A stretch of 64,000 nt of DNA from Candidatus Bathyarchaeota archaeon (GTDB lineage Archaea; Thermoproteota; Bathyarchaeia; 40CM-2-53-6). Shown here one piece after another: positions 19,895-35,160 of this stretch. The position numbers and the translations under genes were made by a program. The stretch is from positions 96,001 to 160,000 of the forward strand of contig CAVSBL010000002.1 in NCBI GenBank assembly GCA_963726255.1. The letters are read 5' to 3'. Under the pieces are notes generated by a model. That model was given only the letters and a program-made list of their open reading frames with translations, did no database searches and was not told the DNA's origin. The stretch's first letter is position 1. The number at the start of each line of letters is the position of its first letter.

Positions 19895-19916
19895 TTGATA
19901 GAAACCTCCCTATGTT

Positions 19917-20639
19917 TTATGTCTTGATTTTCTCGACCAGCAACATCTTTCCAAGTGTAGTCAACTTGACCTTGGTTTTTCCCCTAGAATGCCTAGTGGC
20001 TTGGGCGAGGCCGAGGTCAATTAGGCCGCGTGCATCCTCCGAGCCGTGAATATGGTAACTAAGTAGGGGTTTACCGTAGTTTGTAAGCTTGCTCAACTCG
20101 TCTAGGCTTTCAACTTCTCCCCCGGCCTTGTCCAATGCTCTGAGTATGTTCAACTTCACGTCCGAAACCAATTCAGTGTAACTGAGCTTCATTGGGGGAA
20201 GCATGACGCACTCATCCCCTTTGCAGAAGAACGCTTTGAACCCCAGAATGAACGAGGTGACGGCAGCGGCGATGCAAATCATCTTATCGCCACTGCTAAC
20301 GTTCAGCAGGAAATCATCAAACTGATCCTTGTTCTTTTCGACAATTTCTGAGAAGACCTGCATGATGTCCTTGTAGGAGTGTTCAGGCCTAATCGTGTCG
20401 TAAACCTCGACTTCGGCCTTGAGTGTCTCTGTTATGCGCGTTGCCAAGCGCTTAACCCCCTCCTTGTCGCGGTCATAACAAATTAACGCAAGCTTATTCG
20501 CGGGTGCGTTCCTTACCCCGGCGAGGACCCCTTCTGAATCCTCCCCCACGGTCGATATTTGGAGGGTTTTCCGGAAGGCCCCGCCTGATTCGTCCTCAGA
20601 TTCTTTTCTACGATGGCTTGCGGTCTCCAAAACTGTCAA
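19917..20639 (-). CDS. CARF-like plus winged-HTH regulator (Csa3/DUF6293-like)
   Basis: Rossmann-like N-domain with LNVSSGDK motif; C-terminal wHTH (SLDELSKLT...LSYHI...LTTLGK). Confidence 0.75.
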   Translation of the reverse strand: MTVLETASHRRKESEDESGGAFRKTLQISTVGEDSEGVLAGVRNAPANKLALICYDRDKEGVKRLATRITETLKAEVEVYDTIRPEHSYKDIMQVFSEIVEKNKDQFDDFLLNVSSGDKMICIAAAVTSFILGFKAFFCKGDECVMLPPMKLSYTELVSDVKLNILRALDKAGGEVESLDELSKLTNYGKPLLSYHIHGSEDARGLIDLGLAQATRHSRGKTKVKLTTLGKMLLVEKIKT

Positions 20640-20772
20640 TTTTCCCTTATCCTTTTCCTTGGAAGGGCCCGCCGTCGAAGTAAAGCTTGCTGGTCAGCGA
20701 GTCCTGCCTACTGCAAGCTGCGCTTTGCCAGAGGTGGAAAATCCTTCTAAGGCAGGCGATTAATCTGGTCCG

Positions 20773-21594
20773 ATGGCCTTGGGTATTAGGATAGGGTGCA
20801 GTGGCTGGTCATACGCCGATTGGGTCGGGCCATTCTACCCGAAGGATACTACGCCTCACGATTACTTGAAACTGTATTCGGGTGTCTTTGATTGTGTAGA
20901 GATTGATTCCACGTTTTACCGCACGCCGTCCCCAGCGATGGTGCAGCAATGGAATAGTGCTACCCCATCGGGTTTCTTGTTCGCGCCGAAGCTACCGAAA
21001 CGGATTACACACGACCAGCACCTGAAGGAAGTTTCATCTTATCTTGAGCACTTCGTCAGAACCTTAGCTCAGTTGCGGGAGAAGCTTGGGCCATTCGTCG
21101 TACAGCTCCCACCATCCTTCAAAATTCCTAAGCATGAGAAGGCCTTAGCCGACTTTATCGGAACCCTTGACCCACAGTATAAGTACGCTATAGAATTCCG
21201 TCACAAATCCTGGTTTAATCCGACCGTGGAAAAGCTGCTCCGAAGCAGGAACATCTGCCAAGTCTGGTCAGTTAACCAATACTTGACAACGCCGCCTACC
21301 GTGACCTCAGACTTCGTCTACATGCGCTTCGTCGGGGACCGAGAACTCACCAAATTCGGGAAGGTACAGAAGGATCAATCTAAGGTCACAAAGACCTGGA
21401 GTCAGACACTGCAAGAAGTTGGTGATGAGGTTAAGGACCGATTCATTTTCTTCAATAACCACTTCGCCGGTTTTGGCCCTGCCTCCGTGAACGAATTCAG
21501 GAGGCTAATGGGGCTGGTGCAGCTTGATTGGTCAGACTTGAAAGAACCTCAGGGCCCGCAGAAAACTCTCTTCGACTTCTCCAAACCACGCTAG
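20773..21594 (+). CDS. DUF72 (YecE-like) TIM-barrel protein
   Basis: IGCSGWSY, VEIDSTFY, QLPPSF, EFRHKSW, FFNNH. Confidence 0.9.
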   Translation: MALGIRIGCSGWSYADWVGPFYPKDTTPHDYLKLYSGVFDCVEIDSTFYRTPSPAMVQQWNSATPSGFLFAPKLPKRITHDQHLKEVSSYLEHFVRTLAQLREKLGPFVVQLPPSFKIPKHEKALADFIGTLDPQYKYAIEFRHKSWFNPTVEKLLRSRNICQVWSVNQYLTTPPTVTSDFVYMRFVGDRELTKFGKVQKDQSKVTKTWSQTLQEVGDEVKDRFIFFNNHFAGFGPASVNEFRRLMGLVQLDWSDLKEPQGPQKTLFDFSKPR

Positions 21595-21612
21595 TCTAAT
21601 GTTGGAGTCAAG

Positions 21613-22710
21613 TTGGCGCGCGTAATATTTCACGTTGATCTGGATGCTTTCTATGCTTCGGTGGAGCAAAGGGAGAACCCATCCCTACGTGGCGTCCCAC
21701 TCATTATTGGCGCCGATCCTAAAGCGGGAAAGGGCAGGGGCGTTGTTGTTGCCTGTTCCTATGAAGCGAGAAAGTTTGGGCTTCACTCGGGCCAGCCCAT
21801 TTCTAGAGCTTACAGACTATGCCCGCGAGGCGTGTATGTTCCACCCAACCTCGCATTATACGGCCAAGTTTCCGCAGATGTTATGGAGCGAATCAAGAAG
21901 TATGCTGATAGATTTGAGCAGGTGAGCATAGACGAAGCATACTTGGATGTGACTGAAGGCAGCAAACGTTACGGTAGCCCTATTGAACTGGCTAAGCTGA
22001 TTAAAGCTGACGTCAAGGAACATGAGGGGCTCACCTGCTCTATCGGAATAGCTCCGAACAAATCTACCGCGAAGATAGCTTCAGATTTCAAGAAGCCTGA
22101 TGGCCTAACGTACGTGGAGCCCGCTCATGTCAAGGATTTCCTCGCTCCACTACCAGTTTCCAAGATAAGCGGGGTTGGAAAGAAGACAGAGCTAAGGCTC
22201 AACCAACTTGGAATCAAAACCATAGGTGACCTTGCGAAATACCCACCGAAAAACCTCCTCAAAGAGTTCGGCAAATCCGCAGTCTGGCTCTGGGCCATAG
22301 CCAACGGCGAAGAGCAGGTGGAAGTTCAAGAGAATTATGTTATGAAATCCATTGGGGCCGAGCACACGTTTGACATCGACACGGATGACTGGGTTGCGAT
22401 AGATCGTCAACTCCTCGACCTAATCGACCTTGTCTACAAGAGATTGATTGACGAAAGTATGTCTTTTCGTACCGTAACGTTGAAGATTAGGTTCGTTGGC
22501 TTCGAGACTTATACCCGAGCAAAAACACTGCGATTCACAGCTTCGAACAAGGACGCAATCGTCGAATCAATACGATTTCTCGTAGAAGAGTTCAAGAATC
22601 ATCCAAAGAAGGTACGACTTCTCGGTGTCAGGTTATCCGGCTTAGAGGAGAAAGCTGGGAAACGGGCAGCGAAGAATACCTTGGATGCCTTTGGCGCGAG
22701 TCGGCCTTAG
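21613..22710 (+). CDS. dinB: Y-family DNA polymerase IV (DinB/Dpo4)
   Basis: FHVDLDAFYASVE, SYEAR, SIDEAYLD, AKIASDFKKPDG, GVGKK. Confidence 0.95.
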   Translation: MARVIFHVDLDAFYASVEQRENPSLRGVPLIIGADPKAGKGRGVVVACSYEARKFGLHSGQPISRAYRLCPRGVYVPPNLALYGQVSADVMERIKKYADRFEQVSIDEAYLDVTEGSKRYGSPIELAKLIKADVKEHEGLTCSIGIAPNKSTAKIASDFKKPDGLTYVEPAHVKDFLAPLPVSKISGVGKKTELRLNQLGIKTIGDLAKYPPKNLLKEFGKSAVWLWAIANGEEQVEVQENYVMKSIGAEHTFDIDTDDWVAIDRQLLDLIDLVYKRLIDESMSFRTVTLKIRFVGFETYTRAKTLRFTASNKDAIVESIRFLVEEFKNHPKKVRLLGVRLSGLEEKAGKRAAKNTLDAFGASRP

Positions 22711-23687
22711 CTTGTTAGCTTCAATTCTGGTAGAATGTGGTTCACTGTGGCGCGCAGGGCTTCTATCTCCTGAGGGTGCATCCGTCGTAGCGGGAGCTTC
22801 ACGTAGCCGCTCCTCAGCCCCCTCATCTTCAGAGTCTCCAGGATTGGTGCAATAGGAGGTGTAGACAAGACATTGCGAATTGCGCGCATTTTCATTTGAA
22901 CAGTCTTTCCTTTCTCCAAATCTTTCGCTTTGTACGCTTCGTACAATTCAACAAAATGTTCGGGAAAAGCGTTCGCAATCGCCGACACGCCTCCGTGAAC
23001 GCCCGCGCAGAAGGCTGAAAACAAATACGAGTCCGTTCCAGTGATGACATTGAACTCATCGGGAACTATGCGCAGGTAATCCAACAGCTGCGTGAAATCG
23101 CCGCTGCTATCTTTGATTCCAACAACTTTCGGAATCCTACTCAGCCTCTCGAGTAACTTGGCGTTGACATTGAACCCTGTATTTGGGGGGATATTGTAGA
23201 CAAACAAGGGGAGGTCCGTGGCGCGGGATATTTTCTCATAGTACTCGATAATTGCATCTTCCCCCGGATGATAGTAGAACGGGGTCAGGCTGGCCACGGC
23301 GTCGGCCCCAATGTTTTCAGCGTGGCGTGCCAGTTCTAGGCTAGCGTTCGGGTCAGATGCGCCTACCTGCACGATGACCGGGACGCGGCCATTCGTTTCT
23401 TCCACAACAACCTCCGCAACTCGTTTTCTCTCACTCGTCTCCATCGCCGGACCCATCCCAGTAGTTCCAAGCGGGTAGAAGCCGTTAACTCTGCTTCTCA
23501 ACTGGAATTGAACAATTTCGCGTAATGCCTCTTCATCAACCTCACCGTTCTGTGCAAAAGGCGTCACAAGGGCTGTAACAATGCCTCGGAGCTTGAAGTT
23601 GTTCGCCATCGAGCTAGTTCGCCGCGAAAGGCGTTTGTAACCGTAACTAAAATGCGTTAGTATTCTCAGAGAATCGCGACCCAGCAA
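22707..23687 (-). CDS. Dihydrodipicolinate synthase-family aldolase (DapA/KDG aldolase-like; start likely 23609)
   Basis: TPF, GTTG, YNIP, GIKDS Schiff-base lysine. Confidence 0.88.
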   Translation of the reverse strand: MLGRDSLRILTHFSYGYKRLSRRTSSMANNFKLRGIVTALVTPFAQNGEVDEEALREIVQFQLRSRVNGFYPLGTTGMGPAMETSERKRVAEVVVEETNGRVPVIVQVGASDPNASLELARHAENIGADAVASLTPFYYHPGEDAIIEYYEKISRATDLPLFVYNIPPNTGFNVNAKLLERLSRIPKVVGIKDSSGDFTQLLDYLRIVPDEFNVITGTDSYLFSAFCAGVHGGVSAIANAFPEHFVELYEAYKAKDLEKGKTVQMKMRAIRNVLSTPPIAPILETLKMRGLRSGYVKLPLRRMHPQEIEALRATVNHILPELKLTS

Positions 23688-23740
23688 TTAGGGCCCGAAT
23701 TGTTCAACGATAGCTTCAAAGCCGAGAATGGTTCCCGGCC

Positions 23741-24094
23741 ATGTTCATGGAATATCGAATGAAATTGCATTCGGCAGATTTCGATGGCAAACGGTTGAAG
23801 AGCACGGGAACAATCCCTGTACTATTCTATGCACAATGGTGCCCTTTCTGCAGAAGTTTCGATCCAAAGTTCGAGGCTGCGATGAACGGTAAGGGCGTGC
23901 GTTGGGCGGAGGTTGACATCAGCGACGATGAGGATCCGCTCTGGGAAACTTTCAACATAAACGTCGTCCCGACGGTAATTGTCTTCAAAGACGGCCAACC
24001 AATCTTCAGAAGGGATGGTTTACTCGGACGTGGCCTGTCGGAGAAGGCAATCGAAGAGACTCTTCAGGAGATCGAGACGCATGCAACACACTAG
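23741..24094 (+). CDS. Thioredoxin-family protein
   Basis: FYAQWCPFC active site; VPT cis-proline motif. Confidence 0.88.
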   Translation: MFMEYRMKLHSADFDGKRLKSTGTIPVLFYAQWCPFCRSFDPKFEAAMNGKGVRWAEVDISDDEDPLWETFNINVVPTVIVFKDGQPIFRRDGLLGRGLSEKAIEETLQEIETHATH

Positions 24095-24099
24095 ACGTT

Positions 24100-24399
24100 C
24101 TAACCATCGCACTCATACACAGTTTCACGGTCAAGTGGTTTGCCCTTCCTAAACCTCCATATTTCGACTGTTCCATGGAAAGCCTCTCCCCATAGCTTCA
24201 GCGTCTTACGGTCTTCGTCTGTAGCTCTGCCTTCTCCGCTTTTCACTTGAACCATCAACATGCGCCCTCCGCGGCCAGCGAAAATATCAACTGGACCGTG
24301 AGAGGCTGCGCTTCTACTGCAAAACCAGCCTTCCTTCCTCAACATGCGTAGGACTTGGTATTCGCGGCTCCTGCCTCTAGTGTATGGGGTAGATACCAT
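24100..24399 (-). CDS. Hjc-like Holliday junction resolvase / PD-(D/E)xK nuclease
   Basis: GRSRE...GWF..RSAASHGPVDIFA...VQVKS. Confidence 0.8.
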   Translation of the reverse strand: MVSTPYTRGRSREYQVLRMLRKEGWFCSRSAASHGPVDIFAGRGGRMLMVQVKSGEGRATDEDRKTLKLWGEAFHGTVEIWRFRKGKPLDRETVYECDG

Positions 24400-24493
24400 C
24401 TATCTTCCAATCCCTCTGGATGCTCAATTCTCCACCATGAATGTGTGCTATTCGCACCGGCCCAACGAGTTTACAATTAACGCAGATATGTGA

Positions 24494-24542
24494 AATACTT
24501 AACACCACTCTATAGTGTTGGTTAAAACACGTTTTTTGACTC
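24494..24542 (+). repeat. Motif A copy 1 (semi-palindromic site)
   Basis: aatacttaacaccactctatagtgttggttaaaacac is identical over 37 bp to 28160-28196, and 46/49 when extended. Confidence 0.9.
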
Positions 24543-24667
24543 AGCAGATTGCTTAATCAAGTAAATCAGCTCATTAGTGCTGGTAAAATCCAAAATTCTG
24601 TGAGAATCTAGTACTGATCTCTTTCCAACCTAGTTTACCTAGTGTTTAATGGAAGTCTAGAAGATGA

Positions 24668-24691
24668 GTTCAAATTTGCTTGCCCGCACCA
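24668..24691 (+). pseudogene. Degenerate tRNA(Leu-like) 3'-end remnant
   Basis: G-TTCAAAT-ttgct-TGCCCGC-A-CCA has exact T-loop/5/7/discriminator/CCA spacing; 24668-24699 matches the reverse complement of 30298-30329 at 29/32. Confidence 0.6.
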
Positions 24692-24723
24692 GCTGACCCA
24701 CACACAAATCTGATTACCCTTGT

Positions 24724-25215
24724 GTGAGAGTTTGTTTCAGGCAGTATCCCTTGGAATCATCATCTGTGATTATTCGTAACTACGTGAAAGAGAGCGACTT
24801 GCAAGGATGCGCTTTCTTGTTGAGAGAGTTGACCGAGTGGCATCGCGAAATGTATGAAAACCCGCTCACTAAGTGGGGTCCCATAGAGAGTGACTATGAC
24901 AGAGATCTAGATACCGTGGATCCAAGCCTGTTTTGGGTTGTTGTCCACGGTTCCAAAGTCATAGGAATGGTTGGACTTCTCAAGGAAGGAAGGTGGGGAA
25001 AGGACGCCGAAGTCGAGCCCATCATGGTCACCCGGGAATTTTCCCTTGAATGCCATGTCAAGGATAGAAGGGAGCATTGCGTCTCCGATTCGGAACTACG
25101 GGTAGGTTATGAGCCCTTTCTCTTCAAGCGTTCCTTGCAGTTTTGCGATGGATCTGTGTACCTCCGCCTCTTTCTTGCCGCCCGTACAAACGAGCTTTCC
25201 GCTTCCGAAGATTAG
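24724..25215 (+). pseudogene. Truncated GNAT acetyltransferase
   Basis: IIRNY...DL, FWVVVHGSKVIGMVGL, EVEPIMV, then loses the acetyl-CoA GxG loop and runs antisense into tbp. Confidence 0.6.
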
Positions 25216-25665
25216 TATGACTACTTTCGGGTCTTCCATTCTGTAGATGAGGCCGGGGAACTGTTCGGGTTCATACATCGTATGTCTGAGTGAATAGGTC
25301 GCCTTTTCCAAATCAATATGGCCGCCTAAACCTGCCGAAGCCACTATGTTTTGAACCTGAATCTCAGGCTTACTCAGAATGACGATCCCGTTACGGTTGA
25401 GCTCGTCCGCAACTTTCGCGACGGCCTTGTGAGCCTGCCGCTCCGACTTCGTCCCAGTGCAGACCATTTTACCCGAGCCGAAGATCAACGTAGTGGACTT
25501 CGGTTTCTTCAATCGATATACTAAACCGGGAAATTGTTCAGGCCGATATTCGACGCCAGGGAACACGCGCACAATAGAGTTCAGGTCAATATTCTGGTGG
25601 AGATTACCTGTCGCGACCACGTTCTCTATGCTGATGTACGCTTTGTGTTCGGCCAGAGGGCGCAC
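25096..25665 (-). CDS. tbp: TATA-box binding protein
   Basis: Two direct repeats NVVA/NIVA...Y(R/E)PEQFPGL(V/I)YR...LIFGSGK(M/L)VCTG. Confidence 0.96.
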   Translation of the reverse strand: MRPLAEHKAYISIENVVATGNLHQNIDLNSIVRVFPGVEYRPEQFPGLVYRLKKPKSTTLIFGSGKMVCTGTKSERQAHKAVAKVADELNRNGIVILSKPEIQVQNIVASAGLGGHIDLEKATYSLRHTMYEPEQFPGLIYRMEDPKVVILIFGSGKLVCTGGKKEAEVHRSIAKLQGTLEEKGLITYP

Positions 25666-25676
25666 CCGAGTGATAC

Positions 25677-26087
25677 TTAAGGTGCGCTTTGTGAAGGAAG
25701 CCTATCTATCATCCGCCTCTCGTGAACCTCGAAATAGTGTCGGTATCCTTTCGCGTCCTCCTCGTAATCATACTTCGTCAGCGTACGCCGGTCTATGTAC
25801 AAACCTGACCCAAGGTGATCCATCTGCATATTTCTTGTGCGAGTTGTCTGAACATCGAGAATGTCCACGTAGTTCAGCCCCTTACCCGGCTTCCACTCCG
25901 TGACTGGAGAGGGCTCACTCATCGTGATGAGCTTCAAGAAGTGTCTGGGAGAACGCTGTTCACTGTGGCCACCTCGACAAGCAAAAACCTTTGAGTCCAT
26001 GAAATCATTGAAATGCTCATAGCTTCCGGTGAACTCAAACCGGACACCGCATTTTTGGCAGCAACACAAGAAGACACGATTTGACAT
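25677..26087 (-). CDS. Zinc-binding hypothetical protein
   Basis: CQKCG...CRGGH; co-oriented 11 bp upstream of tbp. Confidence 0.6.
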   Translation of the reverse strand: MSNRVFLCCCQKCGVRFEFTGSYEHFNDFMDSKVFACRGGHSEQRSPRHFLKLITMSEPSPVTEWKPGKGLNYVDILDVQTTRTRNMQMDHLGSGLYIDRRTLTKYDYEEDAKGYRHYFEVHERRMIDRLPSQSAP

Positions 26088-26703
26088 GGGCCTCTATAGT
26101 CCGCTCACCTAATAGACGTCCCTACCAGGAATCTCAAACAGCAAGCCATCAAATCCGCCACAAGAACCGAAGTGTTGTTTGCGACATCACTGAGAGCCAA
26201 CATGCTATTCTACCACGAATTCTGTAGTTATCCTAATCGAAATCCAAACCGCTCCGTCTGCTTATGTGTACCGGATAGCCAGGACGTGCGATCTTAGGAA
26301 CTAATCAGCAAGAGAAGAGCCCGCACCACTAGCCCCACCCCCCCAAAGTCCAGAAAACTTTTGAGAAAGAACCTGACTTTATACCAATTGCTAACAAGTC
26401 CCGAGCCCCGGCCAGGGCGATGACGGAACCAACTCTAAAACAGAATGTACCAAGAATTGAACAAGACTTGGCCCTAATGGCCATAATGATTTAGCAGAAA
26501 ACTTCTAAATCACGAATTTCGTTGTGAACTCTACTTGTCTTTCTATCCTTATATTGAACCAAGGCGAGAATGCACAAAGTTAGTTGTCGAGAACGAGAGG
26601 CACGAGTCATTTGCAACGATTGACCGCATGTTCTTCTTCTTGATGCAACTGACCGAAGTCGCCGAAGTCTGAGGAAACAACCGAAATCTCGTTCCGACGA
26701 TAA

Positions 26704-28017
26704 GTGAAAGACGGAACCAGTCTTCGGTCTTCATCTTGGACCCGCGACGTGGAAGATAAGGAGAAAAAATCTGTGAGTACTTTCGAGAAACTGGGTTTAA
26801 GCCCAGAAATATTGGATGCTATCAAAGCACTTGGATTCGAGCGACAGTTTCCGATCCAAGAAGCAACGATTCCGCTTCTGCAACACGGAACCGATGTGAT
26901 TGGTCAAGCTCATACCGGAACTGGAAAAACCGCAGCCTTCGGGATACCGCTCCTAGAGATCGTTGACGAAAAGAACCTGAATATTCAAGCGCTGGTGCTC
27001 GTTCCGACACGCGAGCTTGCAGTGCAAGTAGCAGGCGACATCAACTCGTATGGCAGATTCACTCGCAAGCGTGCTCTTGCAATCTATGGTGGTCAATCAA
27101 TTAATGTTCAAATACGCGCCTTAGAAGATTGCCCGCAGATCATAGTTGGAACACCCGGGCGAGTCATCGACCATATAGAACGTGGATCCCTTCACCTTGA
27201 AAAAGTTCAGTGCGTTGTTCTGGATGAGGCTGACAGGTTGCTGGACATGGGCTTCATTCATGACGTTGAGCATATCCTAACTAAGACTAGAAGTAAACGT
27301 CAAATCGCGTTCTTCTCCGCAACGATGCCCAAAGAAGTACTGAAACTTGCCCGCAGGCATATGAAGAACCCTCGCGAAATCCTGATCGAACCGGAGGATT
27401 TCAACGTCAAGGAAATCAGCCAATACTACTACCAAGTTGACCATGAAAGAAAACTTGATGCGCTCCTAAGAATCCTGCAGGACAAAGAAGTACAACGTGC
27501 CATAGTTTTCTGTCGAACCAAACGCAGCACATTCTGGCTGAACCAATCACTCGGGAGAAGAAATCAAGACGCCATAGCACTAAACGGCGACCTCACCCAA
27601 CATCAACGCGATAGAGCAATGAACGCATTTCGAAGCGGTCACAGCCGTATACTGGTTGCCACTGACCTAGCGGGAAGAGGTTTAGACATTGACGGAGTTA
27701 CACACATCATCAACTATGACGTCCCTCAGAATCCGTACACTTACTTCCACAGGATTGGTCGAACCGGACGAGCTGGAAAAACAGGAACCGCAGTGACGAT
27801 AGTATCCGCGGAGCAAAATGGCGACTTTCGGGCAATACAATCGATGGCAGACGACCGGATTGAGCGACTTAACTTCACCTCTGGCCCTGGGGGAGAGAGG
27901 AATCGTGGATATCTAGTGGTGAAACTCGTCGCGCGTTCGGGGGAAGATCACGATACCCAAGGCACCGCCGCCGTTCAAACTATCGATATTCGCGCCGCTG
28001 AAGCTGCGCATTCATGA
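26704..28017 (+). CDS. DEAD-box RNA helicase (CshA/DeaD-like; start likely 26773)
   Basis: Q motif, AHTGTGKT, PTRELA, TPGR, DEAD, SAT, HRIGRTGRAG. Confidence 0.95.
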   Translation: MKDGTSLRSSSWTRDVEDKEKKSVSTFEKLGLSPEILDAIKALGFERQFPIQEATIPLLQHGTDVIGQAHTGTGKTAAFGIPLLEIVDEKNLNIQALVLVPTRELAVQVAGDINSYGRFTRKRALAIYGGQSINVQIRALEDCPQIIVGTPGRVIDHIERGSLHLEKVQCVVLDEADRLLDMGFIHDVEHILTKTRSKRQIAFFSATMPKEVLKLARRHMKNPREILIEPEDFNVKEISQYYYQVDHERKLDALLRILQDKEVQRAIVFCRTKRSTFWLNQSLGRRNQDAIALNGDLTQHQRDRAMNAFRSGHSRILVATDLAGRGLDIDGVTHIINYDVPQNPYTYFHRIGRTGRAGKTGTAVTIVSAEQNGDFRAIQSMADDRIERLNFTSGPGGERNRGYLVVKLVARSGEDHDTQGTAAVQTIDIRAAEAAHS

Positions 28018-28106
28018 AATACTGTAGCGGCTAGTATCCTATACTTCTATACTACCGTAAAATGAACAAACACATCCTACCATTTCGCCCCGAAGGGGCG
28101 CGGCGA

Positions 28107-28142
28107 AGTGTGTGTGTGCGTACCACTCGACCCACACACACT
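28107..28142 (+). repeat. Motif B (GT/AC hairpin) copy 1
   Basis: agtgtgtgtg...cacacacact stem; 28111-28142 matches the reverse complement of 30339-30370 at 27/32; preceded by a cgcccc-gaa-ggggcg hairpin. Confidence 0.8.
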
Positions 28143-28159
28143 ACTGAGCGAATGAGGAT

Positions 28160-28208
28160 AATACTTAACACCACTCTATAGTGTTGGTTAAAACACAATT
28201 CTTGACTC
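28160..28208 (+). repeat. Motif A copy 2
   Basis: Direct repeat of 24494-24542. Confidence 0.9.
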
Positions 28209-28267
28209 CAAAGGCTCAGCGAACGACAAACTTCCGGGGTTCATCCGGTCAAGCGCAGAAAAACACG

Positions 28268-28295
28268 GGGGTTCAAATCCCACCCCCGGCGCCAA
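28268..28295 (+). pseudogene. tRNA(Ser-like) 3'-end fragment (att-like)
   Basis: GGGGG-TTCAAAT-CCCAC-CCCCGGC-G-CCA; no intact anticodon arm upstream. Confidence 0.8.
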
Positions 28296-28330
28296 GGCAT
28301 GAACGCGCGGATTTCACAGTTTTCGAGGGA

Positions 28331-30022
28331 TTAATCGCAGGCGGGTCGTGGATTCCACAACTTTGACAATAGACTGCCCCCACTCTTCGGAGCTTGAGCC
28401 GCTTGTGTTGGCCCGCTTGGTTTTCTGCGCCTGGAGGCGACGATAACCGCACCGACGAGTAGGATGACGGCAGCGAGTATCAGCAATTGGTTTTGCTGAA
28501 GCATGCTCGTCAAATCTCCGACCACTGGGCTGGGAGCCTGCGTGCTTGTTTGAGTTGATGTCTGTGTGGCTGGATTAATGTTCAGGACGAGGTTGGCAGC
28601 TCTGTTTACTCCACCGCCAGCCCCGGTTACTATTAATGTGAATGGTCCGGTGGGTGCGTTCGCTGGGAGCGTAACTGTAAGCGCTGAAGTAAAGTCTGGG
28701 GTTCCGGATGTAACGGTGAAAACCCCGTTGGCGCCGGACGGTAATCCTGACACGGACAAAGTGACTTGCGAGTTGAAACCGTTCAAACCGACCACGCTGA
28801 CCTGGTATGTGGTTGTTCCTCCCTGGGTCGATGTCTGGGATGGGGGGTTCACGTCTATTCTGAAGTCTGGTGACTGCCCAACCGTTAGCATGAATGCGGC
28901 TGTGTGTGATGTTGTTCCAGCGGTGCCCGTGATCGTTAAGGTGTACTTTCCAGAGGCCGCAGACGCTGTTGTTGTGATGGAGAGTATTGAACTGAACTTT
29001 GGCGTCCCTGATTTCGGATTCAGCGACGCAGAGACTCCCTTCGGAGCGCCAGTAACTTTCAAAGCCACGTTCTGGGACGTTCCCGATAACAGGCCGACCG
29101 TAACCGTTGAGGTTGTGCTTGCTCCGGGTGTGATGGTCCGTTGCGCTGGTGAGGCTGAGATGGAGAAGTCGAAGGGCTGTACCGTCTTCACCGTCAGAAG
29201 AGCGTTCGCCTGATGCTTCACGCCATGCGAAGAGCCGGTGAGAGTGACAGGGTAACTGCCCGGGGGAGTTGAGCTGGAGGTTGAAACCCGTAGGGTGGGT
29301 GGACTTGGTATCACCTGGTAATTCATTCCCGGGCCCAGGCCCGAGACCTGAATGTTGATGGTAGTACCGCTGTAGGAGGGGTCGCTGTAGGATATGAGGA
29401 CCTGAAACGTCGCAGTGTCACCCTGCTTCACCGTAACAATAGCCGGGGACAACCCGAGGCTGAAATCGAACGGGGTTGTCGCGGAGGTTATAATGACGTG
29501 TGTCACAGCGGTTTTCACGGCGGTTGTCGCGGAGGTTGTCGCCGCGGTTGTCGCGGAGGTTACAATGACGTGTGTGGGGGGAGCCACTTGGACCACTTGG
29601 AAGTAAGCAGATCCCAGTGCTACTATTTCGCCGCTACCTGACTCATCGACACCCACCACGGCAATATAGTTATTTCCAGGAGTGCTTAGGCCGGGAGGGG
29701 ATACTCGGTAAGTCAACTCGGGTGCTACGTTCATGATGGGTGCACTATCCCAAATGTGCGGATATGCCAAAGCGGGGCTCTTGCTCCAGTCATAAGTTGT
29801 AATACTTACGCGGGCAATTTCCATACCCGTCCACGCTATCCCAGCAGTTGCGATCCGGAAAGCAATCGTGAACGACTGGCCTACGGCCACAGATGTTGGA
29901 CTAACAGATACGTAAACAGTCCCCCCAGGCGCATTTACGGCCATAGTAACACCGCCCACCGACACGGCAAATAGGAGCAAAATCGCTAGACCGGATCTAG
30001 CTCGCAAAATCTCAATACTCAT
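28331..30022 (-). CDS. Ser/Thr-rich cell-surface protein with tandem Ig-like repeats and a C-terminal TM
   Basis: Signal peptide; three (F/P)DF..(S/N)P...G.T repeats; TM plus RRRK; C-terminal zinc ribbon (YCQSCG) sits out of frame. Confidence 0.8.
   Translation of the reverse strand: MSIEILRARSGLAILLLFAVSVGGVTMAVNAPGGTVYVSVSPTSVAVGQSFTIAFRIATAGIAWTGMEIARVSITTYDWSKSPALAYPHIWDSAPIMNVAPELTYRVSPPGLSTPGNNYIAVVGVDESGSGEIVALGSAYFQVVQVAPPTHVIVTSATTAATTSATTAVKTAVTHVIITSATTPFDFSLGLSPAIVTVKQGDTATFQVLISYSDPSYSGTTINIQVSGLGPGMNYQVIPSPPTLRVSTSSSTPPGSYPVTLTGSSHGVKHQANALLTVKTVQPFDFSISASPAQRTITPGASTTSTVTVGLLSGTSQNVALKVTGAPKGVSASLNPKSGTPKFSSILSITTTASAASGKYTLTITGTAGTTSHTAAFMLTVGQSPDFRIDVNPPSQTSTQGGTTTYQVSVVGLNGFNSQVTLSVSGLPSGANGVFTVTSGTPDFTSALTVTLPANAPTGPFTLIVTGAGGGVNRAANLVLNINPATQTSTQTSTQAPSPVVGDLTSMLQQNQLLILAAVILLVGAVIVASRRRKPSGPTQAAQAPKSGGSLLSKLWNPRPACD
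29474..29575. repeat. Intragenic tandem repeats encoding a T(S/A)ATT linker
   Basis: Repeated ggttgtcgcggaggtt units and a duplicated (ta/ca)atgacgtgtgt. Confidence 0.7.
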
Positions 30023-30305
30023 TCTCGTGAGTGGTAATTAATGGGCCGCGACGCTATTTGACACTTTGCATGAAACGTTCGAGAAATTGAGAGAACCGAA
30101 AACTCGACACGGGAGAACGAAGGCGCTGTTCATTGAAGCACCGACAAACCTACACACCCTCAAGAACGTCACTTTCTCTGATTGTCCTGAATTCTGTCAG
30201 CCAGACAGTCGCCACGGCAAAACCCAACCTCGCACGCGACAACAGAAGGACAGCTATGCGAGGGTTAGCGCGCACGCGTAAATCCCCCGAGCGTGTGGGG
30301 TCAGC

Positions 30306-30329
30306 TGCTACGGGCAGGCAAATTTGAAC
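30306..30329 (-). pseudogene. Degenerate tRNA(Leu-like) 3'-end remnant, second copy
   Basis: Minus strand GTTCAAAT-ttgcc-TGCCCGT-A-GCA, homologous to 24668-24691. Confidence 0.5.
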
Positions 30330-30338
30330 CGTATTTTC

Positions 30339-30370
30339 AGTGTGTGTGGGTCTGATGGTGCGCACACACT
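30339..30370 (-). repeat. Motif B copy 2 (inverted)
   Basis: agtgtgtgtgggtctgatggtgcgcacacact. Confidence 0.8.
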
Positions 30371-30578
30371 CCAGAGTGCAACAGGAAAGATTGTATTCGT
30401 CCGTAATAGTCTATCAGGAGCAAGAGAATTGCCTTCCTCGGGACCACACGGTTCGGACACCCTGGTCTAATCTTTTGTCCAGACGAGAGACACTTTCCCG
30501 TTAATTAGCAATGAAAAGGGACTATATGTGGTCAGTTCGATTTTCATTGAATCAACGCAAAATGACCCCCGATTTGCA

Positions 30579-30610
30579 TTTTAACCAACACTATAGCGTG
30601 CTCTAAAATA
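30579..30610 (-). repeat. Motif A copy 3 (inverted)
   Basis: Reverse complement tattttagagcacgctatagtgttggttaaaa, 27/32 identical to 24496-24527. Confidence 0.8.
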
Positions 30611-30630
30611 CTTAAGGCATCGGGGTTCGA

Positions 30631-32307
30631 TTGCACGAAACGAGAAGACCGGGGTTGCCCATTTCAGCGCGGCCACTTTTGACGCTGCTCGTCTGCATAG
30701 TCATCGCTGGCCTTTTCATCCCAACTGTTCGTGCGCAGGCAACTTACGCGGTTTCAATAACAATCGCGGGCCTCCCCACCACAATTAGCACGAATGTCTA
30801 CGTCGACGGGTCATTCAATACGACGATGGTCGGTGGCCAGACAAGCTCCTTCAGTTTCGCAACTTCAAACATAGGCCATGTGATTACGGTAGACTCCTAC
30901 ACCCCAAGCAGCATCGGTGCAAACGGCACCCGATACTATGAGCAAGAAGCATCATGGGGTTTCAGCGCGTCAGGAAACCATGTTTTCACCTACACGGCGC
31001 AGTACTATCTTACTGTACAGTCATCCTACAGTACTGCGACCGGTCAGGGATGGTACAACTCCGGTGCGTCAGCACAGGCAACTGTTCAAGATCGTCAGAT
31101 TGACGAAGGCCAGGGGACGCGGCAAGTATTTGCTGGCTGGTCGGGAGATGCATCTGGCACCGATACGAGTTCGAATAGCATCCTGATGAGCGGGGCAAAA
31201 ATTGCCATAGCGAACTGGAAGACACAGTTTTTCTTGACGGTTGAATCGGACCCGCCCAATGTCTCGAGTCTTGCCGGTTCTGTGTGGTATGATTCAGGGA
31301 GTCAGGCTACTTTCTCAGTAAATGCGATTGTCACGGCCACAGACAATACGCGGCTGAAGTTTGATCACTGGAGCGGCGATTACACAGGCCAGTCGCTGAC
31401 CGGCCACATAGTGATGGACAGGCCGCATACAGTTAAGGCCAATTTCCTCGCCCAATACCTACTTACCGTTCAGTATGATCCCGCTACCATTTCAACCAAA
31501 TACAATGAATCTGATGCGGGCTGGTATAATGCCAACGCAAACGTTCAACTTGGGCCGGCTCCCTTGACCCTCGATTTGAGTTCCATCGAACGGCTTCGTT
31601 TCGTTGGGTGGGTTGACAATGGATCATCTTTCCCGACCCCATCGTACACGGTGGTGATGGATCAACCGCGTACAGTCACCCTATCGTACAATACACAGTA
31701 CTACGTGGACGTCCGTTCTTCGCATGGTTCAGTTTCCGGTTCGGGATGGTACGATCGCGGGGCGTCCGCGAAGATTACTGTTCTGGCGGACGGACAAAGT
31801 TGGCCGATAACATACGCTCTCACCGGTTTGCGGCTCGACCCACCAACGGGGGTACTCCAGAAAACTGGTGATTCGTGGAACCTGACAGTCGACAGGCCAT
31901 ATGTTGTTGAAGCCCAGTGGAGCTTTGACTACTTCCCGCTGATCGCAATACTTGGCGGTGGAGGACTAGCAGCCATTCTCAGCGTTGGAATCGTACTCGC
32001 GTATAGGCGAGGTGTTTTCAATCGCAAAGCGCAAAAATTCCACCCACCAGTAGGCTCACCCACGCTCGTCGCCGCAACGCAGGTTTGCAGCACGTGTGGG
32101 AATCTTGTGCCGAAAGGCGCATTTTGTGAAAAGTGCGGCGCGCCGTTGGAAATGCCCGCGGCTTCATCAGACGAAAAAGTATTCGATTACATCGTGAAAC
32201 ATGAAGGTGTCATATCATTAAGCAAGGCTTCATCCGATCTCGGAATTCCTGTGGGCGAACTCAAGGAAATAACGGAGCGGCTGAAGAGTCAGGGGCGCCT
32301 GACCTAA
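30631..32307 (+). CDS. Single-pass membrane protein: extracellular beta repeats, TM, cytoplasmic zinc ribbon and winged helix
   Basis: Repeated QYYLTV...GWY..G...F.GWSGD units (InlB B-repeat/thermopsin-like); CSTCG...CEKCG; C-terminal wHTH-like segment. Confidence 0.8.
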   Translation: MHETRRPGLPISARPLLTLLVCIVIAGLFIPTVRAQATYAVSITIAGLPTTISTNVYVDGSFNTTMVGGQTSSFSFATSNIGHVITVDSYTPSSIGANGTRYYEQEASWGFSASGNHVFTYTAQYYLTVQSSYSTATGQGWYNSGASAQATVQDRQIDEGQGTRQVFAGWSGDASGTDTSSNSILMSGAKIAIANWKTQFFLTVESDPPNVSSLAGSVWYDSGSQATFSVNAIVTATDNTRLKFDHWSGDYTGQSLTGHIVMDRPHTVKANFLAQYLLTVQYDPATISTKYNESDAGWYNANANVQLGPAPLTLDLSSIERLRFVGWVDNGSSFPTPSYTVVMDQPRTVTLSYNTQYYVDVRSSHGSVSGSGWYDRGASAKITVLADGQSWPITYALTGLRLDPPTGVLQKTGDSWNLTVDRPYVVEAQWSFDYFPLIAILGGGGLAAILSVGIVLAYRRGVFNRKAQKFHPPVGSPTLVAATQVCSTCGNLVPKGAFCEKCGAPLEMPAASSDEKVFDYIVKHEGVISLSKASSDLGIPVGELKEITERLKSQGRLT

Positions 32308-32738
32308 AAGAGCGAGAAGGGGGAACGGGCCTGCTGCTCACTCGCAACCGCGTATTGTCCGAGTGGAGCGCCTAGTTTGGGAGCTAATCCCCAGTAACAT
32401 TCTGTGCAGAGGCTTAGAGCCCCGTATTGCCTGTTACAGGCTGCGCAAATCGACCTGCCGCATCTTGAACATATGAACGATGATGGGAGCTCAGAGTGAT
32501 AGTAGCAGCTTCCCTGTCTTTGGCCCTGTCTTGAAACGTACGTGGACGGAGCGATTGGAGCGACCGGAGTTGGTTTCATGGAGGGAGTTAAGGGCGATCG
32601 CACTTCAACCTTCACAGGTGGTCCACGGGAAACCATCGCACCGCATTTGAAACAGTACTTTGCATCCCCAGAGTTGGGTGAGCCGCAAGCCGGACACATC
32701 GACATGCTGAAATCCCAACATCCATTGGCATCAAGCAT
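32304..32738 (-). CDS. Zinc ribbon plus B-box-like zinc finger protein (start likely 32705)
   Basis: CPACG...CFKCG; CYYH-x7-CSRCGRSICAAC-x8-CTEC. Confidence 0.8.
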   Translation of the reverse strand: MLDANGCWDFSMSMCPACGSPNSGDAKYCFKCGAMVSRGPPVKVEVRSPLTPSMKPTPVAPIAPSTYVSRQGQRQGSCYYHSELPSSFICSRCGRSICAACNRQYGALSLCTECYWGLAPKLGAPLGQYAVASEQQARSPFSLF

Positions 32739-32861
32739 TTCTTAACGGTTGCTTAGGGCGGAAAGGGTTCGTCCATCCCAATTCGGCGTGAAATGTGGCA
32801 ATCCATGGGAGTTGGAATGACCCGCGTGCAAAAGTGTGACACGGTTATTACAAAATTCACA

Positions 32862-34106
32862 CTATGTAAGCCTTAGAATTGATTCGTGAAACTCTCCGTT
32901 CTTGTCTTCGCCGAGAACTCTGAGATAGTCCCCCCGGGCGATACCCTTTCCTAGCCTTGAATGCCCGTCAAGTAGTCTTGAACCCTCTGAAGTTTCCGCT
33001 AGGACGTTCAATGTTCCGGCTTTGATTTTGGTGTGATGGCGGATAGTTCCTTCCAAACTCTCCTTCGAACTATGGGCAACCTCGAACGGCAAATCAGCCC
33101 GTTGGGCAGGTTCTCTAGTCGTCCCTTCCTTTCCGCACACGAAGCATTTCTCACCACGTTTCAAGTCAATCGGGGTGTACCGATTATTCTTCAAATCCAT
33201 GAACAAGACAGATCTGAGGGGTTGACCGCTGGTTCCAGGCCATTTTGCGTTCGCCCGGTATTCCTTCATCCCTAGGATCAGCTTGATTGTTTCCTGGGCA
33301 AGTATTGATGAGACCAGTGAAATCGTCGTTGCAAAGGATGGAACGGCCTCCTGCTCCAACGGTGCATCACATGGGTTTCGTAAGCCAACGATCTTAGAGT
33401 ACTGGTTGGGCGGAAACATGCATACAGGGCACGCATCGTCGGGCGGTAGATAGACATGTACTCTACCGTTCAGCCCGGTGATTCCCCCGTCAACTAATGG
33501 GATGGAGTATTTTCTGCAAATCTGAGTTAGGAAAATTCGCGAGACGACATTGTCGAGCCCGCAAACAACTACGTCCGAATCCAAATAGAACTTCAGAGGC
33601 ATCTTCTCGAGGTCGCCCCTGAAGGCAATCGTCTGAACGAAAGGGTATTTTCTGTGGAGGTTTCCTGCCAGAACCTCGGCCTTATTCCGTCCTAGGTCGT
33701 TTTGTTGAAAGAGCACCATGCGGCTAACGTTAGACATTTCGACAATATCCCGGTCTACAATGAAGACTCTGCCGACTCCTAACATGGCTAGGTTCTTGGC
33801 CACCTCGTTCCCGATGGCGCCGGCCCCAGCGAGTAGCACCGATGAATCCCTTATTCTCCGCTGGCCTTCTGGCCCCCAAACGAGCAAGTGTCGCGCCCAA
33901 AGGTAGTCAACGGTCACTTTGCCCTTGATTTTCGACAGTCGGCTTTGTTCCGGGAGGAGTTTGCCGCCTGCCAGCAGATTGGTGAGATCTGGTTCAATGC
34001 CTAGTTTCTTGCAAATTATTTCCTTGACGTCCTTCACCGTCTTGTTTGGGTTCAGCTCCACTTCGAGCTCTTTGTAGGAAGGGAGCGAGGCTCTTATGCG
34101 CATCAA
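32862..34106 (-). CDS. Ubiquitin-activating enzyme E1 (ThiF/MoeB fold) with an N-terminal ubiquitin-like domain
   Basis: N-terminal beta-grasp pattern (TVKDVKEIICKKLGIEP...LLAGGKLL); GAGAIG, DRD..E.SN.SR, GLDN; CPVC/CFVC zinc pair; putative catalytic Cys in RNPCD. Confidence 0.9.
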   Translation of the reverse strand: MMRIRASLPSYKELEVELNPNKTVKDVKEIICKKLGIEPDLTNLLAGGKLLPEQSRLSKIKGKVTVDYLWARHLLVWGPEGQRRIRDSSVLLAGAGAIGNEVAKNLAMLGVGRVFIVDRDIVEMSNVSRMVLFQQNDLGRNKAEVLAGNLHRKYPFVQTIAFRGDLEKMPLKFYLDSDVVVCGLDNVVSRIFLTQICRKYSIPLVDGGITGLNGRVHVYLPPDDACPVCMFPPNQYSKIVGLRNPCDAPLEQEAVPSFATTISLVSSILAQETIKLILGMKEYRANAKWPGTSGQPLRSVLFMDLKNNRYTPIDLKRGEKCFVCGKEGTTREPAQRADLPFEVAHSSKESLEGTIRHHTKIKAGTLNVLAETSEGSRLLDGHSRLGKGIARGDYLRVLGEDKNGEFHESILRLT

Positions 34107-34696
34107 GAAGACGCTCGTCGTGCCCGTCCAGGGATATCGAACCTAACTATGTCATCTGCGCCTAAAGATTTGGCCAATTCGGGGACAGGGACTACGTTGA
34201 AGCGGACAATATCGTTGGCTTCCTTATTCGTCGGCCTAGCTTTCGTCATCTTGGGAAATCCGTAGGAGCGACAAACGCCTGCTGCTTTGAGCGCCCGGGG
34301 GTTATCAAAAACACTCTGAGGGTTTGGATCCGTCAGAAGGTAATGTAACGCGTTGACGACAGATACGAGTTTCAGCCTGGGGTCCCATTTTTCTCCGAGT
34401 ATTGAAACGCATACGGCATTCGGTATTTTCGGGACTATGTTTGGATGGGCGATTTCCGTAAGCCAGGTAGCCACGGGTGGCTTCAACGGGTATTCTGGGG
34501 GAATATCAAGTCTGAAGCGGTGCCAATTCGTGTAATCCGTGAAGGGCCAGACTCCCTTCTCGGACAGCTTCATGACTTCCCCTTTCTCGCAGCGAATGAG
34601 CCCTTCGAATTGAGTAGGTGGGTCGTCGATGGCAGTGATTGTAGGGAACTGATGGTTGAGCAGGCTCTTTTCCTTCAGCAGCAACGAGACATCCAA
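34103..34696 (-). CDS. Ubiquitin-conjugating enzyme E2 (UBC fold)
   Basis: IPPEYPLKPP, HPN motif, catalytic Cys in AVCVSIL, WDP, LLTDPNP. Confidence 0.92.
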   Translation of the reverse strand: MDVSLLLKEKSLLNHQFPTITAIDDPPTQFEGLIRCEKGEVMKLSEKGVWPFTDYTNWHRFRLDIPPEYPLKPPVATWLTEIAHPNIVPKIPNAVCVSILGEKWDPRLKLVSVVNALHYLLTDPNPQSVFDNPRALKAAGVCRSYGFPKMTKARPTNKEANDIVRFNVVPVPELAKSLGADDIVRFDIPGRARRASS

Positions 34697-34707
34697 ATCT
34701 AGCCAGC

Positions 34708-34974
34708 CTACCCGCCGATGATGTTGTATGGCATGAGTGCAAGCTGAGCATTTTCAGGAATGCCTAATCTTGCAACGGTGGTACTCTCGTCTAGTATCGC
34801 GCCTCCATACATGAGAGCCACGGTGCTCGGGTCAACGTTGAACGATTGGCAGACCTGTTGCTTTATTTCCGCAACTGTATGGTCTGGGATTACATCGATC
34901 TCCGCTAGGCCAGTCTGGGGGCCGATGGGCGCTTGGACGAACAGTTTCATTTGTCGTGTTTCACCTCCACTCAT
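34708..34974 (-). CDS. Eukaryote-like ubiquitin-fold modifier ending in Gly-Gly
   Basis: MKLFVQ...TVAEIKQQV...LMYGGAILDESTTV..LGI...L.L....IIGG-stop; Shine-Dalgarno-like ggaggtga before the internal ATG at 34950. Confidence 0.9.
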   Translation of the reverse strand: MSGGETRQMKLFVQAPIGPQTGLAEIDVIPDHTVAEIKQQVCQSFNVDPSTVALMYGGAILDESTTVARLGIPENAQLALMPYNIIGG

Positions 34975-35160
34975 GCTGGGCCTTCATTTTCGCAGATGAG
35001 CTTAAACTGTCTTGCTATGAATCGGTTGGTGCGTGAAGGTAAGGTCCTCGGCCCGGGCGGCTCTTGCTGGGTACATGGGGTGTATTGTGAGGCTGGGAGG
35101 CCGATTTGGTCACCTTCCGTTCCGGAGTCTTCGTGTAGCGTCGTGGTCTTCATATTCATT

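Follow-up and report, generated by a model that had tools for sequence, protein, structure and literature searches.

Short tRNA-like repeats at the edges of shuffled gene modules in a Bathyarchaeia genome

Introduction

What are tRNA-like pieces doing in a region of archaeal DNA that holds no intact tRNA gene, and do they have anything to do with the changing gene content around them? The question is raised by positions 24494-30610 of a 64,000-nucleotide (nt) stretch, hereafter the window, of a Candidatus Bathyarchaeota genome (G000; 2.42 Mb in 5 contigs, 98.5% complete, the window being C2:96001-160000). The window opens with the end of an archaeal 23S rRNA gene and carries four interrupted tRNA genes. 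An earlier note, made from the letters alone, had described this region as an accessory one organised by three units, each a semi-palindromic site (motif A) followed by the remnant of a tRNA 3' end, and had likened it either to the stacked ends of tRNA-targeting elements or to a cassette array served by a recombinase in trans. Bathyarchaeia are abundant and uncultured, and gene exchange in them is poorly known; we report here on a short, searchable repeat that marks the edges of shuffled single-gene modules across a genus, and so offers a handle on its flexible genome.

Results

A variable island between two conserved genes

Positions 24707-30540 form a variable island between two conserved genes, as seen on comparing G000 with four genus mates (G021, G004, G015 and G014; five genomes in all). 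The closest of these, G021, matches 19000-24706 at 95% and 30541-35000 at 96% nucleotide identity, with 214 bp between the two matches; G004, G015 and G014 keep the same flanks and hold 1.1, 5 and 7.3 kb, respectively, of other DNA at the island site. The content of the island is different in each of the five genomes: it is a cassette-like accessory array, in keeping with the earlier note, and the cargo order is not fixed. The right edge is alike in all four relatives, at 30534-30541, and the left edge varies among them (24415, 24456, 24562 and 24706). Metagenome contigs were taken from four runs of a single study, and consist largely of dispersed copies and relatives; one of them joins 24598 to 30580 with 398 other letters between, a short form like that of G021, and breaks fall at 24668, 24706, 26532, 28294, 30340 and 30369. 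Given this makeup of the contigs, these positions mark the ends of homology, and not excision.

The tRNA-like pieces belong to dispersed repeat families

The tRNA-like fragments that had been noticed at 24668 and 28268, and on the minus strand at 30329, are all present as described. They are members of intergenic repeat families, dispersed throughout the genome and the genus, which we name T and H (~45 nt) and S (~90 nt), and of which a search of the open-access literature found no description. The T consensus is (AC)GGTTCAAAT-N5-TGCYCGCACCA-NNN-GACCCACACACAC, with GTTCAAAT as its T-loop-like part. The H consensus is GTGTGTG-CGCACCA-NNN-GACCCACACAC, often with TTTC to its left and GAAA to its right; read from the consensus, it forms a dyad (10-8-10) whose spacer holds the variable NNN, and so has the shape of a recombinase core site. 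S comprises a conserved stretch of ~65 nt and the last 26 nt of a tRNA-Ser, ending in GGGGGTTCAAATCCCACCCCCGGCGC(CA); its upstream ~65 nt contain GAACGA-type repeats that recur before T.

At the left edge of the island stands a T repeat (T1, formerly the Leu-like fragment; 24661-24708, plus strand; nhmmer E 7e-9), which reads GTTCAAAT-N5-TGCCCGCACCA-GCT-GACCCACACACA and of which 24668-24699 pairs with 30298-30329 (minus) as a 91% inverted repeat. Within the island there follow, all on the plus strand, a degenerate T/H repeat, CCCGCACCACTAGCCCCACCC, at 26312-26345 (a pattern match with at most two mismatches), an H repeat, GTGTGTGTGCGTACCA-CTC-GACCCACACACAC, at 28105-28144 (E 1e-7), and the S repeat at 28204-28294 (formerly the Ser-like fragment), which is 89% identical over 89 nt to C2:1250332-1250420 and whose piece at 28269-28294 reads GGGTTCAAATCCCACCCCCGGCGCCA. 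Towards the right edge, on the minus strand, a degenerate T repeat (formerly the second Leu-like fragment; 30293-30336, E 0.4) has an H repeat directly upstream (30335-30378, E 6e-9), forming an H-T pair. The repeats at 28105-28144 and 30335-30378 are of the same family, and had been overlooked in the earlier note.

How widespread are these repeats? A T/H profile built from 48 pattern matches gave 90 nhmmer matches in G000, of which 65 have E<0.01. When as many as two mismatches are allowed, the pattern GCGCACCANNNGACCCACACAC has 35 matches in G000, its reversed control having none there and 0-1 overall; it occurs in 20 of the 22 other genomes of the genus, with 2 to 46 copies each, and, in the same order, in one of 18 searched genomes of other genera. 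There are ~7 copies of S in G000. The T/H copies are clustered in a dozen regions, H-T and T-T pairs being common, and cassette-like islands with such repeats are found at more than ten places in the genome. Fifty of 65 copies are intergenic, with no orientation bias relative to the neighbouring genes (16/13/11/10), on which ground we rejected a strand-specific element of untranslated regions or terminators. A longer mobile element behind the repeats was likewise rejected: all-against-all comparison of the 1-kb flanks of 65 copies gave 36 pairs of at least 50 nt, which are mostly 50-70 nt long and confined to the repeat.

Repeats lie at the edges of shuffled modules

The repeats stand where single-gene modules end, and these modules are shuffled among genomes that are 92-97% identical. 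At the loci of the relatives, all nine nhmmer matches fall within the variable island, the conserved flanks having none. The pieces of the island recur in other genomes as separate modules with sharp ends, and in three genomes T/H repeats form the ends of the helicase, TBP and 199-bp modules described below. In G000, G021 and G015 the left half of T1 and the flank upstream of it are orthologous, and they are joined there to three different right halves, which differ in N5, in NNN and in the DNA downstream. In three genomes the helicase module, in turn, closes with GTGTGTGTG. What comes next is CGTACCA-CTC-GACCCACACAC in G000, forming H, and in G014 and G021 an inverted T repeat that starts with the same GTGTGTG.

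A second island, at C2:437-457 kb, consists of nine stretches with 89-97% identity to G021, in which they are reordered on two contigs. Five of its 13 usable breakpoints lie within 65 nt of a repeat called by nhmmer, where by chance we would roughly expect ~10%, and about three more coincide with repeat-like sequence as judged by eye. When two singleton repeat loci were compared with relatives, these too proved to be mosaic DNA, with no clean empty site.

A pair of copies in another genome may be recorded here. Locus L109 (G003:C2) has two repeat copies 8.6 kb apart, at 6567-6598 and 15188-15216, with CGCACCACGATAAC in common; the left arm is of T type in the first, and in the second it is GGCGGGGGCGG, which also occurs in G000 at C2:455229-455253 and in G019. 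A T site that had received an insertion, the crossover lying close to the NNN spacer, would yield such a pair.

Cargo of the island and of other repeat-bounded modules

The cargo that the earlier note had listed for the island stands in part. The TBP and the DEAD-box helicase are clear, and the GNAT match is weak and truncated; the supposed zinc protein has no Pfam family, and the supposed Ig-repeat surface protein has no more than a sub-threshold match to Transglut_N. From left to right, the truncated GNAT-like open reading frame (ORF; 24724-25215, plus) matches PF00583 (E 2e-4) over no more than positions 3-71 of the 116 of the profile, and shares letters with the gene for a TBP paralog (25096-25665, minus; Pfam E 5e-62) at the latter's 3' end. 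The TBP module spans 25037-25705, its left boundary being approximate, and is found at 87-92% nucleotide identity in other contexts in many genus mates; G000 has two more TBP-like loci, one of which is flanked by T/H repeats. Next comes the ORF of 136 amino acids once taken for the zinc protein (25677-26087, minus), whose module (25715-26215) has paralogous copies in G000 at 96% (C2:476477-476976) and 90% (C2:1439939-1440362) identity, with a T repeat ~100 nt beyond the former.

The 199-bp module at 26334-26532 stands after the degenerate T/H repeat and is 95-97% identical elsewhere; in G014 and G021 it is preceded by a full H repeat, and ~477 bp more lie before the helicase. The helicase gene itself (26704-28017, plus; Pfam E 3e-49) sits in a module at 26532-28116 that is 89-94% identical in at least ten genus mates, with sharp ends at 26532 and ~28024-28116. 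Both helicase and TBP are present, in a different order, in the genus-level relative L001, the helicase of which is 94% identical in amino acids to that of the window. Beyond L001 the best matches of the helicase are bacterial (Paenibacillus, Bacteroidota; 40-46% identity), which suggests a cassette gene of bacterial origin. The last gene of the island encodes a secreted or surface-type protein of 563 amino acids (28331-30022, minus; the former Ig-repeat protein), parts of which are found in G004 at 90% identity, ~30 kb off on the same contig. Throughout the genome, the genes between T/H copies are typically single and of accessory type, and include those for glyoxalase, MFS transporters, a second TBP, hemerythrin, cupin, SnoaL, CMD, CBS and alpha/beta-hydrolase proteins.

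Motif A is most likely a promoter or operator

The three copies of motif A are real. Its 18-mer core, CTATAGTGTTGGTTAAAA, has three exact matches in the window, at 24510-24527 (plus), 28176-28193 (plus) and 30579-30596 (minus), where 0.02 are expected in a shuffled window and none of 100 shuffles reaches three. Copies 1 and 2 (A1, 24494-24542; A2, 28160-28208; both plus) are 94% identical over 49 nt, 37 nt of which are identical, and copy 3 (A3, 30579-30612, minus-strand orientation) is inverted, with 76-80% identity. The role of organising site that had been given to the motif does not survive the comparison. In the whole 2.42-Mb genome, with up to three mismatches, the core is found at five places: the three exact copies, all of them at this locus, and two copies with three mismatches in unrelated contexts. 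None of the other T/H repeats, among the matches listed, is preceded by motif A; elsewhere in the genome the scan finds no link between it and tRNA fragments, and motif A answers to the alternative that the earlier note had itself named, a duplicated fragment of a promoter or gene start.

The conservation of the copies points the same way. A1 has an orthologous copy in G021 and G015 and is absent from G004 and G014; A2 is found in G000 only, the matches in relatives being their copy of A1, and would be a local duplicate. A3 lies inside a conserved block, 30541-30630, upstream of the conserved right gene, which in relatives also contains the palindrome TTCAAT-TTTC-ATTGAA. A3 and ~40 nt on each side of it are almost invariant in all five genomes, the flanks being only 75-96% identical, and this conservation starts at the island edge. 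The motif consists of two A+T-rich boxes around a palindromic core; A3 occupies -52 to -19 of the right gene, its end 19 nt before the TTG at 30631, and a box, CTCTAAAATAC, stands ~25-30 nt before that TTG (its position judged by eye). At such a distance from the start codon one expects the archaeal TATA box of a leaderless message; a conserved A+T-rich box so placed was found for A3 only.

With the nearly invariant A3 block before a conserved gene, and no motif A at the other T/H repeats, these sequences favour reading motif A as what is most likely a promoter or operator that serves the flanking genes, and not as a recombination site. The A+T-rich boxes round a palindromic core, the spacing of the A3 box and the genus-wide conservation are like those of an archaeal promoter, with a TFB recognition element (BRE) and TATA box, combined with an operator palindrome; unlike such a promoter, the motif is repeated, in inverted orientation across the island and once within it. 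Given its near-symmetry, it may fire into the island too. That motif A and a tRNA remnant make up a 'unit' is a by-product: the motif stands at the island's flank, next to the first cassette boundary. A degenerate half-copy of motif A also stands ~60 nt downstream of A1, found in G021 by motif search and in the window, at 24570-24597, by eye.

Resemblance to tRNA ends, and the interrupted tRNA genes of G000

The T, H and S repeats look like the 3' ends of tRNA-Leu and tRNA-Ser genes together with their trailers. No piece is recognised as a tRNA: ARAGORN detects no tRNA in this region, and Rfam at E<=10 gives only a 13-nt T-loop match. As had been noted, no intact tRNA lies within 24.5-30.6 kb, the nearest being at 37561. 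The tRNA-Ser genes of G002 and G003 have a 3' end identical to the last 26 nt of S, so that S contains the 3' part of a tRNA, as a displaced tRNA fragment does. The same is not found for T, which has only GGTTCAAAT and CGCACCA in common with tRNA-Leu. We also considered the trailers of native tRNA genes as the source of GACCCACACAC and rejected them: CCCACAC stands 0-7 nt after CCA in only two of five tRNA-Leu genes, and other tRNAs are without it.

A tRNA-Ser gene of G000 (C2:1248 kb) has, 0.8 and 2 kb downstream, a tandem pair of S copies in the same orientation, and another copy lies 2.2 kb downstream of a second tRNA-Ser gene: the classic picture of what would be stacked attachment (att) remnants.

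The tRNA genes of G000 are heavily interrupted. The Rfam tRNA model finds 17, a scan for T arm and acceptor ~30 (up to 190 nt), and ARAGORN almost none of the tRNAs of the genome; the five tRNA-Leu genes are 140-210 nt long, with several insertions. Two tRNA-Ser genes and one tRNA-Leu gene (C2:1248190-1248375, 1889170-1889350 and 1289560-1289770) have a T-arm insertion of ~40-60 nt, which sits where S, and the integrase-adjacent tRNAs of relatives, are uninterrupted. One metagenome contig has the same 39-nt insertion relative to S at window 28278-28280. It is a long-standing proposal that interruption of a tRNA gene protects it against integration, and the positions of these T-arm insertions are consistent with tRNA introns that disrupt integration sites.

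Integrases are found in relatives and on a viral record, and not in G000

No recombinase lies inside the region, in keeping with the earlier note: a Pfam search of the ORFs at 20.7-34.7 kb found no recombinase domain in any of them. The same is true of the genome as a whole for the families that were searched. Profiles PF00589, PF01797, PF00078, PF00239, PF01867 and PF01609 gave no match in G000, which is thus without tyrosine or serine recombinase, Cas1, reverse transcriptase, Y1 transposase and DDE_Tnp_1 as defined by these families. The idea that the host's XerA acts at dif-like sites fails, because a genome that is 98.5% complete has no PF00589 gene. TnpB is present in two copies and rve in two weak copies, none of them near the repeats.

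In the genus, PF00589 genes are found in 19 of 22 mates, with 1-12 each. Of eight extended integrase loci, seven have the integrase beside a tRNA 3' end (four Leu, two Ser and one other), and the tRNA-Ser genes that share the 26-nt end of S have an adjacent tyrosine integrase in relatives. A T repeat stands 19 nt after the stop codon of an integrase gene in G003. In IMG/VR, one record (G041) carries a T repeat 255 nt upstream of, and divergent from, a gene for an integrase of 363 amino acids, and a second has T within 1 kb of its end. An H-type pattern gave one exact match in IMG/VR, unrelated by context, and a shorter pattern four, two of which are true T repeats near record ends; the S core gave none. 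The proposed cassette-like array with a link to tRNA targeting thus keeps its footing in the differing content of all five genomes and in these integrase links (S as a tRNA-Ser end, and G041), and loses motif A as the site that organises it.

Genes for KaiC-like RecA-superfamily ATPases show a further association: a T/H repeat lies within 200 nt at 5 of 10 such loci in G000 (C2:1249292-1250113, 1774683-1775366, 1839931-1840704, 1890484-1891197 and 923439-924145; mostly in the order T, gene, H on one strand) and at 15 of 30 across the genus. In G041, a KaiC-like ORF adjoins the integrase, 240 nt from the T repeat. These ATPases may perhaps just be common cargo.

Several other traces of recombinases were seen. 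In the window, 49938-50255 (plus), after the tRNA gene at 49780-49889, is 46% identical, with one internal stop, to the first 105 residues of an integrase of 413 amino acids in G019, and so resembles the N-terminal remnant of an integrase beside a tRNA gene. Six PF00589 matches within 12 kb form a dense cluster of tyrosine recombinases at G013:C16:1240-12959. The weak rve-domain (DDE integrase-like) ORFs of G000, of 369 and 403 amino acids, lie 4 kb apart (C2:1268434-1268670, plus, and C2:1272329-1272571, minus); similar rve genes occur in 14 of 22 genus mates, none near a T/H repeat.

Discussion

How, then, do the repeats come to stand where modules begin and end? The account that we put forward is one that we hold, taken as a whole, to be evenly balanced between right and wrong. 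It describes 24707-30540 as a hypervariable gene-cassette island between a conserved Hjc-like gene and a conserved secreted-protein gene, in which att-site-like repeats would delimit mobile cassettes, with recombination acting in trans or by homology. T, H and S would be att-type recombination sites, or decayed copies of such sites, left and spread by tRNA-targeting integrative elements; bounded by these repeats, single-gene modules could be gained, lost, inverted and moved via recombination at them. That recombination would be site-specific and catalysed in trans by integrases from viruses or integrative elements, with the crossover within GTTCAAAT or in the NNN spacer of the H 10-8-10 dyad. 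Motif A would play its part as a promoter, one that has been duplicated in inverted orientation and once inside the island.

A number of observations weigh against this account. G000 harbours ~90 repeats despite having no recombinase of the families tested, and G007 and G006 have repeats and no PF00589 match. Four of the eight extended integrase loci are without a T/H repeat nearby, and the T trailer is unlike the sequence that follows CCA at the integrase-adjacent tRNAs (tttacyrgta). The T acceptor TGCCCGC is found in no tRNA of G000, so T is not a plain displaced tRNA end. The 7.3-kb island of G014 is without an nhmmer match, 8 of the 13 breakpoints in the second island have no called repeat, and some module homologies stop ~100 nt short of the repeat. 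Finally, the breakpoints do not keep to one position of the repeat: they are found after GTTCAAAT, at NNN and in the outer GTGTGTG/CACACAC, a scatter that is not expected from one site-specific crossover.

It is this scatter, together with the lack of all the recombinase families tested, that makes room for an alternative that we consider tentative but possible: T and H could be dispersed repeats without a dedicated recombinase, like repetitive extragenic palindromic (REP) sequences or miniature inverted-repeat transposable elements (MITE), which serve as portable homology for homologous or microhomology recombination, their tRNA likeness being a matter of origin only. Like T and H, REP sequences and bacterial interspersed mosaic elements (BIME), the Neisseria intergenic mosaic and 'minimal mobile elements' are short, partly palindromic intergenic repeats that number tens to hundreds, and such repeats are enriched around variable genes between conserved flanks, where gene exchange may proceed by recombination. 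H is near-palindromic, with GTGTGTG...CACACAC ends and often TTTC...GAAA around it; the similarity between copies rarely extends beyond 50-70 nt; and RecA-superfamily ATPases of the KaiC-like type are flanked by repeats at the loci given above, half of those in G000 and half of those in the genus. However, no target-site duplications were seen at the junctions examined and no transposase is linked to the repeats, TnpB and rve being distant and DDE_Tnp_1 absent. T and H differ from REP/BIME in being without a REP-associated tyrosine transposase (RAYT) or other Y1 transposase, in their likeness to tRNA ends and in their archaeal host. Moreover, the strict CGCACCA-NNN-GACCCACACAC, with its free NNN, is kept across the genus and in one further genus, and resembles a protein recognition site with a spacer, whilst the links of repeats to integrase genes, in a viral record and in G003, would be left aside by such an explanation.

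Could the fragments instead be functional RNAs, either the 3' halves of split or interrupted tRNAs or a small-RNA family, with motif A as their promoter? The unusually fragmented tRNA genes of G000 invite the idea, as do the intergenic position of the repeats irrespective of gene orientation and the fact that A1 and A2 are on the same strand as T and S, 108-174 nt upstream of them; we nonetheless find it very unlikely. Split tRNA halves were rejected, in that the genome has no 5' halves with a matching acceptor (GCGGGCA or GCCGGGGG, with a D arm), plain matches to these being unlike tRNA 5' halves, and ~35 copies with one acceptor sequence are unlike tRNAs of different identity. A covarying hairpin was also rejected: among 22 T copies the putative T stem shows no covariation, the mean best stem being 3.45 against 3.28 +/- 0.21 for mismatched partners, with the observed mean attained in 456 of 2000 shuffles. 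The conserved sequence continues after CCA, and the other ~87 repeats are without motif A. The same absence bears on the notion that motif A is itself a recombination site, dif- or attI-like, and forms with the tRNA remnant the stacked end of an element. The presence of three copies, of which two stand in inverted orientation on either side of the island, and the flanking of a variable region by A1 and A3 in G021 and G015 as well, are what one would expect of it; yet cassette-like T/H islands exist at more than ten places without motif A, L001 has the helicase and an H-T pair without it, A3 belongs to the conserved flank in five of five genomes and A1 is missing from two of five, and G000 has no gene of the XerA type. 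This notion, already largely refuted, is to our minds barely credible.

We return to the att-site-like repeats that would bound mobile cassettes, and ask what they resemble. Among described systems the closest are the cassette arrays of integrons and the tRNA-flanked islands through which partial tRNAs are scattered. Integron arrays (IntI, attI, attC) have been reported in archaeal metagenome-assembled genomes (10.1101/2022.02.06.479319). Like these, the modules described here are mostly single-gene and functionally diverse, and are separated by short conserved sites; their order and content vary between close relatives; and there is a fixed junction beside a conserved, promoter-bearing flank, with hybrid sites in which one conserved half is joined to different partners. 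Unlike integrons, G000 has no IntI or any other tyrosine recombinase, and its sites are not attC-like, lacking both a resemblance to GTTRRRY and hairpin covariation. Here, sites and genes are found in both orientations, there are many islands in place of one platform, and the sites mimic tRNA 3' ends.

Displaced tRNA fragments also mark tRNA-targeted genomic islands of the Islander type (PMC4383910), and partial tRNAs are scattered through the tycheposon islands of Prochlorococcus (10.1101/2020.12.28.424599). The likenesses are the partial tRNA 3' ends scattered through variable islands, the tandem copies downstream of a target tRNA (here tRNA-Ser, at 1248-1250 kb), and the integrases that adjoin the same tRNAs in relatives, many genomes holding remnants without an integrase. 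The window differs in that its island, like most T/H clusters, is not beside an intact tRNA, that T matches no tRNA of G000, and that the ~90 copies typically flank single genes and not whole elements.

One may go further and picture a genus-wide cassette system, integron-like but unrelated to integrons, in which dozens of single-gene cassettes in many islands are bounded by ~45-nt sites that mimic a tRNA-Leu or tRNA-Ser 3' end with its trailer. The cassettes would be captured, excised and shuffled by the tRNA-targeting integrases of passing viruses and integrative elements, any cassette being an integrase substrate by virtue of that mimicry, and the T-arm insertions would shield the true tRNA-Ser and tRNA-Leu genes. 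This more ambitious picture we consider unlikely. Should it nevertheless be true that the repeats are substrates of tRNA-targeting integrases, they would provide a route to cassette arrays that is independent of integrons. A genome that is free of integrases and has T-arm insertions exactly at the integrase core of tRNA-Ser and tRNA-Leu is a concrete case for the protection proposal. The modules include a gene of bacterial type, the DEAD-box helicase, and paralogs of a core transcription factor, TBP. There is also a caution for annotation: these tRNA-like pieces ought to be labelled neither as tRNA pseudogenes nor as local att sites of this island alone.

Flanking genes and other observations

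The conserved gene on the left of the island is a short Hjc-like ORF of the Holliday junction resolvase family (24100-24399, minus; 99 amino acids; PF01870, E 1.3e-6, 28.6 bits against a cut-off of 21.1), through which the homology to all four relatives extends. Its family has a single match in G000, and matches in 21 of 23 genus genomes, exactly one in 18 of them. We considered it as a nuclease specific to the island and rejected this, as it is the sole family match in G000 and conserved in position; the gene is probably a housekeeping one. The conserved gene on the right (30631-32307, plus) starts with the TTG at 30631 and encodes a protein of 558 amino acids with a signal peptide and an InlB B-repeat domain (PF18998, E 1.4e-10); it is conserved in the relatives. 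Beyond it, at 32862-34696 (minus), Pfam matches identify a ThiF (E1-like) protein with an N-terminal ubiquitin-family domain, which adjoins a UQ_con (E2-like) protein, the two making a eukaryote-like ubiquitin-system pair.

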